A stretch of DNA of 32,000 nt, from assembly GCA_031283585.1 (NCBI GenBank), contig JAITBP010000007.1, positions 69,327 through 101,326 on the forward strand, written 5' to 3'. Below the pieces are notes generated by a model. That model worked only from the letters and a program-made list of their open reading frames with translations, ran no database searches and was not told the DNA's origin. Positions 27,351 to 27,764 of the stretch are shown here, in pieces (the stretch's first letter is position 1; each line of letters begins with the position of its first letter). A program made the translations under genes and the position numbers. The DNA comes from Puniceicoccales bacterium. Lineage in GTDB: Bacteria > Verrucomicrobiota > Verrucomicrobiia > Opitutales > LL51.

Positions 27351-27418
27351 AAAAGACATAAAAAGATATATAAAGATATAAAAAGACACAAAAGACATAA
27401 AAGACATAAAAAACATCA
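27351..27418 (+). repeat. Seven phased A-tract units (AAAAGAYATA, 9-10 bp period)
   Basis: aaaagacata aaaagatata taaagatata aaaagacaca aaagacata aaagacata aaaaacatca, read directly. Helical phasing predicts intrinsic curvature. Confidence 0.9.
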
Positions 27419-27435
27419 AATAGAACCCGGTCAAG

Positions 27436-27552
27436 TTATTCACAATGACCTGTTAATAACCTGTGAATAGCCTGTGAATTAGTGTTAATAACCTGTAGTT
27501 GTTCACATTTGTTCACATACTATTCACATAGTTATACACAGGGTTATTCACA
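27436..27552. promoter_or_regulatory. Cluster of eight DnaA-box-like 9-mers (putative oriC DnaA assembly region)
   Basis: Compared with TTATNCACA. Perfect matches: 27436 TTATTCACA, 27532 TTATACACA and 27544 TTATTCACA. One mismatch: 27462 TGTGAATAG (rc), 27473 TGTGAATTA (rc), 27499 and 27509 TTGTTCACA, 27520 CTATTCACA. The last five are co-oriented at 10-12 bp spacing. Confidence 0.7.
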
Positions 27553-27596
27553 AAAATTTCCCTCTGGATCCCTGTAATATACTTACAAATTCATAC

Positions 27597-27753
27597 TTAT
27601 TAACATATTAACGGGCCCCCTACTACTACTACTATATAAATATAAATTATTAGTAGTATATATTAACGGTCACCAGAGGAAGCATATTTCCAGCGGCCAT
27701 CTAGCAAAATTATTTATTTATTTTCTTTATATATATTTTCATATAGTATAATT
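27597..27753. promoter_or_regulatory. Putative origin unwinding region: weak DnaA box, GC cluster, CTA x5 (3'-GAT-5' trios), AT-rich DNA
   Basis: TTATTAACA at 27597; GGGCCCCC at 27613-27620; CTA x5 at 27620-27634, followed by pure A/T triplets to 27652 and then GTA GTA TAT. In 27706-27753, 45 of 48 positions are A/T. ATATTAACGG direct repeat at 27605 and 27660. Confidence 0.6.
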
Positions 27754-27764
27754 CTCGACAGTTG

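Follow-up and report, generated by a model that had tools for sequence, protein, structure and literature searches.

The unwinding region of replication origins of the Bacillus subtilis type, reportedly described by Richardson in 2016, comprises DnaA boxes 6/7, a GC cluster, DnaA-trios, and an AT-rich 27-mer. The published search rules for such a basal unwinding system (BUS) ask for (i) a DnaA box with at most two mismatches to TTATCCACA, (ii) a spacer of 0-16 bp from this box to the first trio, (iii) an optional second box with at most four mismatches, and (iv) at least three trios (3'-GAT-5' consensus, with the middle A conserved) (PMC8287927). Escherichia coli oriC became separated from dnaA by a past rearrangement (PMC8287927, PMC10225481). 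The present analysis dealt with a 32,000-nucleotide stretch (hereafter the window) of a Puniceicoccales bacterium (assembly GCA_031283585.1, contig JAITBP010000007.1 of 101,326 bp, positions 69,327 to 101,326), and with an oriC-like module in its 739-bp gap (27026-27764; right end 27761/27764) between sctR on the left and CNNM (ATG at 27765) on the right. This locus is proposed, with a probability of roughly 0.68, to be the functional chromosomal oriC of an uncultured termite-gut Puniceicoccales bacterium, unlinked from dnaA/dnaN and with rpoBC and the ribosomal-protein genes head-on to it. The evidence consisted of the architecture of the module, the restriction of its motif to true origins elsewhere, the selective conservation seen in a sister species, and a switch of third-position strand composition at the gap.

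The sister species was represented by contigs L002 and L003, which started inside the gap and encoded a CNNM with 82% amino-acid identity. The module in the window had the following components, from left to right (strand in brackets):

27350..27420 (+), seven phased A-tracts forming the 10-bp tandem repeat AAAAAGACAT (TRF: period 10, 7.4 copies, 82% matches)
27436..27444 (+), distal perfect DnaA box TTATTCACA (0 mismatches)
27451..27491 (-), four leftward-facing DnaA boxes (27451, 27462, 27473, and 27483; 1 mismatch each)
27499..27552 (+), five rightward-facing DnaA boxes (27499, 27509, 27520, 27532, and 27544; two perfect), facing the unwinding module
27597..27613 (+), trio-proximal tandem boxes, TTATTAACA and then the degenerate ATATTAACG (ATATTCACA as second box in the sister species)
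27613..27620 (no strand), GC cluster GGGCCCCC, the spacer between boxes and trios (CCCC kept in the sister species)
27620..27634 (-), five consensus DnaA-trios, (CTA)5 on the top strand and 3'-GAT-5' on the bottom strand (six in the sister species)
27633..27662 (no strand), DNA unwinding element (DUE), the least stable 30-mer of the window (including the TAGTAGTA arm at 27651-27658)

Judged by its sequence, this module is a canonical DnaA-box/DnaA-trio origin-type element. The TTATTAACA box at 27597 had two mismatches to TTATCCACA and lay 14 bp from the first trio (12 bp in the sister species), and it was followed by ATATTAACG with four mismatches and by the GC spacer. The five perfect CTA repeats had the same orientation as in 28 dnaA-dnaN origins (see below), and they ran directly into the AT-rich DUE, whose nearest-neighbour dG was -24.9 kcal/mol versus a window mean of -38.9 +/- 3.6. 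A further box cluster above chance was likewise present, while the adjacency of dnaA/dnaN or other indicator genes, usual but not obligatory, was lacking, the neighbours being sctR and CNNM-gspF. The loose BUS pattern alone returned 84 candidates in the 32 kb, and only this locus had more than one consensus trio; the loose pattern was non-discriminating by itself, and it is therefore the consensus trios that carry weight. The gap also contained the direct repeats ATATTAACGG and TGTTAATAACCTGT and the inverted repeat TACTACTA/TAGTAGTA. The TAC/GTA hairpin was considered as a functional cruciform and rejected: in the window its stability did not exceed that of shuffled sequences (z = 0.07), although in the sister species it did (z = -4.2).

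Matches to TTATNCACA with at most one mismatch started at 27436 (+), 27462 (-), 27473 (-), and 27499, 27509, 27520, 27532, and 27544 (all +), and three TTATTAACA boxes were located at 27451 (-), 27483 (-), and 27597 (+). Eleven of the 52 box matches of the window (at most one mismatch to TTATNCACA) fell within 170 bp (27436-27605). The densest 200 bp held all 11, compared with a mean maximum of 2.5 and a largest value of 4 in 100 Markov-1 simulations of 32 kb, and with a mean of 1.4 and a largest value of 6 in 2000 simulations of the AT-rich gap composition. The leftward boxes sat in the 11-bp repeat AATAACCTGTG (TRF: period 11, 4.9 copies). The five co-oriented boxes, spaced by 10, 11, 12, and 12 bp, are proposed to form a DnaA oligomerisation array; 44 bp separated them from the tandem pair TTATTAACA/ATATTAACG, which corresponds to boxes 6 and 7 of B. 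subtilis. The A-tract block adjoined the box array on the left (repeat families D1 and D2) and is a probable intrinsic bend; beyond bent DNA alone, the tandem repeat AAAAAGACAT could be a binding array for some protein.

The specificity of the arrangement was assessed in one metagenome-wide scan with the pattern TTATTAACA-N(8-13)-CCCTACTACTACTA, derived from this locus and its sister. Matches were found in 28 metagenome contigs, mostly low-GC and Firmicutes-like. In all 28, dnaA ended 100-300 bp upstream of the motif, and in 27 of them dnaN started directly downstream, the remaining locus being cut off there. These dnaA-dnaN origins shared with the present locus an identical TTATTAACA box and CCC-(CTA)4 run, while the second box varied. 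Because every match adjoined dnaA, the box/box/GC/CTA-trio arrangement appears, as far as public data show, to be specific to bona fide chromosomal origins. The pattern had no match in a viral contig collection and the module no blastn match in a plasmid collection; with no rep or integrase gene near the site, a mobile-element origin was rejected.

The first-pass annotation of this stretch had placed the box starts, the GC cluster, (CTA)5, the repeats, and the A-tracts at positions that were all recovered, and its eight boxes with 0-1 mismatch plus a weaker one at 27597 were found again, the total reaching 11 in 170 bp when the three TTATTAACA boxes were counted. Its interpretation of the order of box, GC cluster, trios, and AT-rich DNA as an oriC-type module agreed with the BUS rules and with the 28 matches beside dnaA. 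The AT-rich component needed correction: the tract it had pointed to (27706-27753) was indeed 45/48 A/T, but belonged mainly to the CNNM promoter, the unwinding element being at 27633-27662.

The sister species kept AAATTCACA, TTATTAACA, ATATTCACA, GCCCC, (CTA)6, the AT-rich stretch, and (TAG)3. When the two species were aligned, identity at the DNA level was 88% over the box/GC/trio block (27579-27634), 76% over the CNNM coding DNA, 67% over the gspF coding DNA, and about 40% over the next 70 bp of the gap, with 39-57% over neighbouring non-coding DNA overall; this comparison argues that the box/GC/trio block is under purifying selection. The CNNM promoter motifs TTTTCTTTATATATATTTT and GTATAAT were also perfectly kept, while the 45 bp preceding them were not conserved. 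The comparison covered the right part of the module, the sister contigs beginning to the right of the left part of the array, and conservation was found in this sister species only. The two sister assemblies were independent and broke (at L002:1 and L003:1) no more than 20 bp apart inside the box array, which points to repeats, strain variation, or altered coverage there. To judge from the MDR0351xxx accession series common to it and the sister CNNM (MDR0351420.1), a full-length SecY (MDR0351038.1) encoded on a 65.6-kb contig (65,634 bp) belongs to the sister metagenome-assembled genome (MAG); this contig may reach the left half of the origin array.

The strand composition of the flanking genes was examined by GC skew at third codon positions (GC3), which was calibrated on few relatives and had a per-gene noise of roughly +/-0.1. 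Genes on either coding strand shared one GC3 polarity on the locus plus strand in L088, L004, and L122, and because of this GC3 was taken to track the replication strand in the clade. The ribosomal-protein cluster had a GC3 of +0.50 in L122, where the flanks placed it on the leading strand, versus about +0.25 for ordinary flanking genes, and of +0.55 in L124, where flanking genes were few and the strand was ambiguous; lagging-strand rplT had +0.14 in L088 and +0.25 in L089. The same cluster gave +0.18 pooled in the window (secY +0.04, map -0.16) and +0.13 in the sister contig L121, and these window values look to be of the lagging-strand type, matching rplT of L088/L089. The genes from PFK (phosphofructokinase) through sctR had a pooled GC3 of -0.13, versus -0.02 to +0.46 (mostly positive) for their orthologs in L085, L088, and L089, with sctR itself at -0.20 on its coding strand versus +0.24 to +0.46. 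The right-flank genes had a pooled GC3 of +0.24 (left versus right, Fisher p = 1.3e-9), with CNNM at +0.17 and gspF at +0.10 versus -0.30 and -0.13 for lagging-strand orthologs in L004. GC3 switched from lagging-type to leading-type exactly at the gap, the polarity expected at an origin; this local step from -0.13 to +0.24, like the raw GC skew that showed no flip, was read within the 32 kb of the window.

Under the simplest model, replication forks have long started at the gap; the genes on its left would then belong to the lagging-strand side and be transcribed head-on, and those on its right to the leading-strand side. The reversed sign of PFK-sctR argues for long residence on the lagging strand and against a recent flip, since an inversion leaves coding-strand composition unchanged. 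A segment with a lagging-strand history joined by chance to one with a leading-strand history, exactly at an origin module, is possible but less likely. The PFK-to-sctR block (23369-27025) was A-rich besides C-rich at third positions, with a third-position AT skew of up to +0.34; this exceeds the values of lagging-strand genes in relatives, so that simple strand bias may not be the only influence on the block.

That the module is a relic, an origin whose ancestral function was lost after a rearrangement or origin replacement and whose decay is incomplete, was very unlikely. Such a history would suit a lineage-specific synteny breakpoint (see below) and a second proximal box that is degenerate here and intact in the sister species, but a decaying block would not be expected to stay conserved above adjacent coding DNA (88% versus 76%) while the spacer diverged to about 40%, and the composition of both flanks appears to have reached equilibrium with replication that starts at this site.

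The surroundings of the module comprised the following features:

26372..27025 (+), sctR, a type III secretion system (T3SS) export apparatus gene and the left boundary (Pfam FliP, 8.4e-69)
27026..27350 (no strand), non-coding spacer, C- and A-rich on the plus strand (GC skew -0.32, AT skew +0.22; lagging-strand-like composition)
27706..27764 (+), AT-rich CNNM promoter tract with the conserved TTTTCTTTATATATATTTT and a -10 element TATAAT at 27747-27752
27765..30274 (+), the genes bounding the gap on the right, for a CNNM/CorC-type transporter and for gspF (Pfam CNNM 1.2e-30, T2SSF 7.8e-44)

All called genes of the window lay on the plus strand, in the order rpoB (3' end), rpoC, rpsL, rpsG, fusA, the ribosomal-protein operons (S10, spc, and alpha, including secY, map, and rpoA), rplQ, PFK, two unassigned open reading frames (ORFs), sctQ, sctR, the gap, CNNM, gspF, and two further unassigned ORFs. 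The closest homologs of CNNM, SctR, and SecY were all from MAGs annotated as termite-gut Puniceicoccales (Verrucomicrobiota). A chlamydial origin, initially suspected in view of the T3SS and gspF genes, was rejected, every close homolog coming from a Puniceicoccales/Opitutales MAG. No ORF of more than 50 aa was found in the spacer 27026-27350; the gap contained no structured RNA at E<=1 (Rfam) and no tRNA, and sigma-70 promoter and terminator scans of it stayed at chance level. Because gidB follows sctR in relatives, leftovers of gidB or mutL were sought in the gap, but tblastn gave only noise and the idea was rejected; a remnant of dnaA in 27000-27800 was rejected as well, with every match at E > 0.3. 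The CNNM promoter tract held the second least stable 30-mer of the window and may serve as a secondary easily melted region.

The junction of sctR, gap, and CNNM is real, because it was recovered independently in the Logan assembly L001, which matched window positions 18638-31583 at 99.9% identity (few SNPs and one indel) and spanned rplQ-PFK-sctR-gap-CNNM-gspF. A chimeric contig, joined in this repeat-rich and AT-rich stretch, was hardly credible for the same reason, even though the two sister assemblies both break off within the array of boxes, at 215-233 bp from CNNM on its upstream side; and the module would remain an origin-type sequence even if the join were chimeric. The indel of L001 lay inside gspF (window 29177-29193; product of 480 aa versus 492 aa) and looks like a strain-level length polymorphism.

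In the sctR relatives, the hypothetical gene-sctQ-sctR core was shared and the flanks varied: (i) L085 and L088-L090 had the same PFK-hyp-sctQ-sctR block as the window, in which sctR is the final gene, followed by gidB and/or mutL; (ii) L091 had the elongation factor P gene upstream of the core; and (iii) L120 had a FAD-binding gene downstream. No box cluster was found in those scanned (L085 and L088-L091, with L120 left out). By genome, sctR was followed by gidB and/or mutL, a hypothetical gene, a FAD-binding gene, or the present gap (window 24640-27025; L085, L088-L091, and L120). It was the last T3SS gene of the cluster in the window and in every relative examined, so that sctS/T/U must lie elsewhere. 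In relatives sctQ measured 452-672 aa; in the window it was much shorter (237 aa, with a distinct ORF of 100 aa in addition).

The CNNM loci of relatives (n=79, from a genome collection) never had more than three box matches per 200 bp. Where identity was about 54%, CNNM was preceded by a divergent gene and a 200-bp promoter gap. L004 and L017 had an RNase P RNA gene directly upstream of CNNM (Rfam RF00010, 203-206 bits; L004:9500-9869 (-) and L017:2433-2805 (-)), with a tRNA further upstream; the CNNM-gspF pair was kept, and its upstream neighbour varied by lineage. L015 (~1790) and L016 (~9945) carried a single perfect or near-perfect box (TTATCCACA / TTATTCACA) about 75 bp upstream of the CNNM start, at a position where other relatives carried TTATAACAT. 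In four of the relatives at about 54% identity (L007, L011, L012, and L071), plus-strand GC3 was slightly negative to the left of CNNM and positive to the right; no DnaA-box cluster was present within 10 kb there, and the left-side genes were divergent repeat-protein genes. The change may be a coding-strand effect, or CNNM may be near a replication landmark there too. Since the homologous loci of more distant relatives were without a box cluster, the module is placed, on this comparison of gene orders, at a lineage-specific synteny breakpoint. Conservation of the boxes among relatives, on which the first-pass annotation had let the idea of an origin depend, was borne out in the sister species (88%) and failed at the homologous loci of more distant relatives.

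A DnaA-controlled promoter of the CNNM-gspF operon, with the CTA repeat an incidental microsatellite, was most improbable. The module lies directly upstream of CNNM and is followed by a conserved -10 element and an AT-rich tract, and the single good boxes of L015 and L016 would fit such control. The last box, however, ends at 27613, about 130 bp upstream of the -10 element (27747-27752), and does not abut the promoter; about 79 relatives have CNNM without such an array; and the CTA repeat and GC cluster are conserved and match true origins. Eleven boxes plus trios far exceed what any known DnaA-regulated promoter has. Promoter control could be compatible with origin function, as at the dnaA and dnaN promoters.

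Several points weigh against the proposal that the locus is the functional oriC. No dnaA or dnaN was found in the 32-kb window (tblastn), in agreement with the first-pass annotation, which had seen neither nearby; the window also contained no gidA/B or parAB genes and no parS match with up to three mismatches. Head-on gene orientation at origins is normally strongly avoided, and the whole 27 kb of the left flank, rpoBC and the S10-spc-alpha operons among its genes, is transcribed toward the site. Of the two proximal boxes, the second is a degenerate one here (four mismatches). No box cluster was seen at the CNNM and sctR counterparts in 80-odd more distant relatives, and deep conservation is not demonstrable. 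The GC3 switch draws on third-position skew and on orthologs in few relatives only, and to the right it covers no more than 4.2 kb of the window and 9 kb of the sister species. To the left and right of the gap alike, the raw GC skew is positive, without a flip; as an argument against an origin it was set aside after the ortholog GC3 values had revealed that ribosomal-protein genes are intrinsically offset toward a positive skew on their coding strand, even where this is the lagging strand, which makes the raw skew misleading here. A stronger origin elsewhere, at the dnaA locus, also weighs as a possibility.

The last point leads to an extra origin-like locus, in which the working oriC would be at dnaA-dnaN and the present copy would be a DnaA sink or regulator (like datA, DARS, or DnaA-box clusters [DBCs]) or a weaker second origin. 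This was unlikely, although the most probable of the rival readings: dnaA/dnaN are not nearby, the left-flank genes face the site, the raw GC skew has no flip, the proximal second box is degenerate, and more distant relatives lack a box cluster at the corresponding loci. The titration and reactivation sites datA, DARS, and DBCs, however, are clusters of boxes that are not known to include trios, a GC cluster, or an unwinding element. Here the trios, the GC cluster, and the unwinding element are all present and conserved, the trio block being the best-conserved part; the exact motif occurs elsewhere only at dnaA-dnaN origins; and the GC3 polarity switch at the gap would have to be a coincidence. 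A chromosome with two complete, firing DnaA-dependent origins, one linked to dnaA and one at this site, was decidedly improbable; if real, it would make this reduced, host-associated verrucomicrobial genome a natural case of a bacterial chromosome with two origins. The first-pass annotation had left the choice between a chromosomal origin and a secondary, relic, or titrating locus undecided; the sister conservation and the GC3 switch favour a real origin.

If the locus is the functional oriC, DnaA, encoded elsewhere in the genome, would occupy an array of 8-11 boxes, and the five head-to-tail boxes (27499-27552), about one per helical turn, would assemble an oriented DnaA oligomer. DnaA from the proximal tandem boxes (27597-27613) would be passed over the GC cluster to the bottom-strand 3'-GAT-5' trios (27620-27634), where an ATP-DnaA filament would stretch the trio strand and open 27633-27662, the helicase being loaded there and the forks departing bidirectionally. 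The A-tract bend might help to fold the leftward-facing boxes back onto the complex.

The locus is a testable oriC candidate for a Puniceicoccales lineage, these termite-gut lineages all being uncultured; a limited literature search found no origin study of the Planctomycetes-Verrucomicrobia-Chlamydiae (PVC) group. The element belongs to a well-known class and is unusual in its surroundings and in the head-on arrangement that these imply. If the locus is the sole origin, it would be a natural dnaA-unlinked origin with the most highly expressed operons facing the fork; the arrangement would be long-standing and common to the sister species, the 25-kb rpoBC/ribosomal-protein supercluster being head-on to the leftward fork beside oriC, and it would bear on selection against head-on conflicts in slow-growing host-associated bacteria. 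The locus would also offer an anchor for orienting MAG contigs and for peak-to-trough growth-rate estimates in termite-gut metagenomes, and it illustrates that raw GC skew can hide an origin beside ribosomal-protein operons.

The comparison with known systems was as follows. E. coli datA and DARS1/2 and the B. subtilis DBCs are, like the present locus, box clusters away from dnaA, but the present locus adds trios, a GC cluster, and a DUE. The predicted dual origins (e.g., of Halomonadaceae; bioRxiv 10.1101/2025.08.05.668638) are, as here, complete oriC-like modules off the dnaA-linked site, but in Halomonadaceae both modules were seen in complete genomes, whereas one locus is visible here. E. 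coli oriC, located between mnmG/gidA and mioC, is likewise DnaA-dependent and unlinked from dnaA, with opposed box arrays beside an AT-rich unwinding element; it differs in having a weak BUS score, control through IHF/Fis and GATC/SeqA, and diverging flanking genes, while the present locus has a strong BUS, no noted GATC cluster, and left-flank genes converging on the site. B. subtilis oriC (incC BUS; PMC6669920, PMC8287927) displayed the same order and orientation of a TTATNCACA-type box, a weaker box, a GC cluster, 5'-CTA-3' trios, and AT-rich DNA. Compared to it, the present locus lies between sctR and CNNM rather than at dnaA/dnaN, forms a single cluster rather than a bipartite one flanking dnaA, and adds the five-box head-to-tail array, four opposed boxes, and phased A-tracts in a Verrucomicrobiota MAG, so that the Bacillus-type box/GC/trio module extends, nearly identical in sequence, to Verrucomicrobiota.

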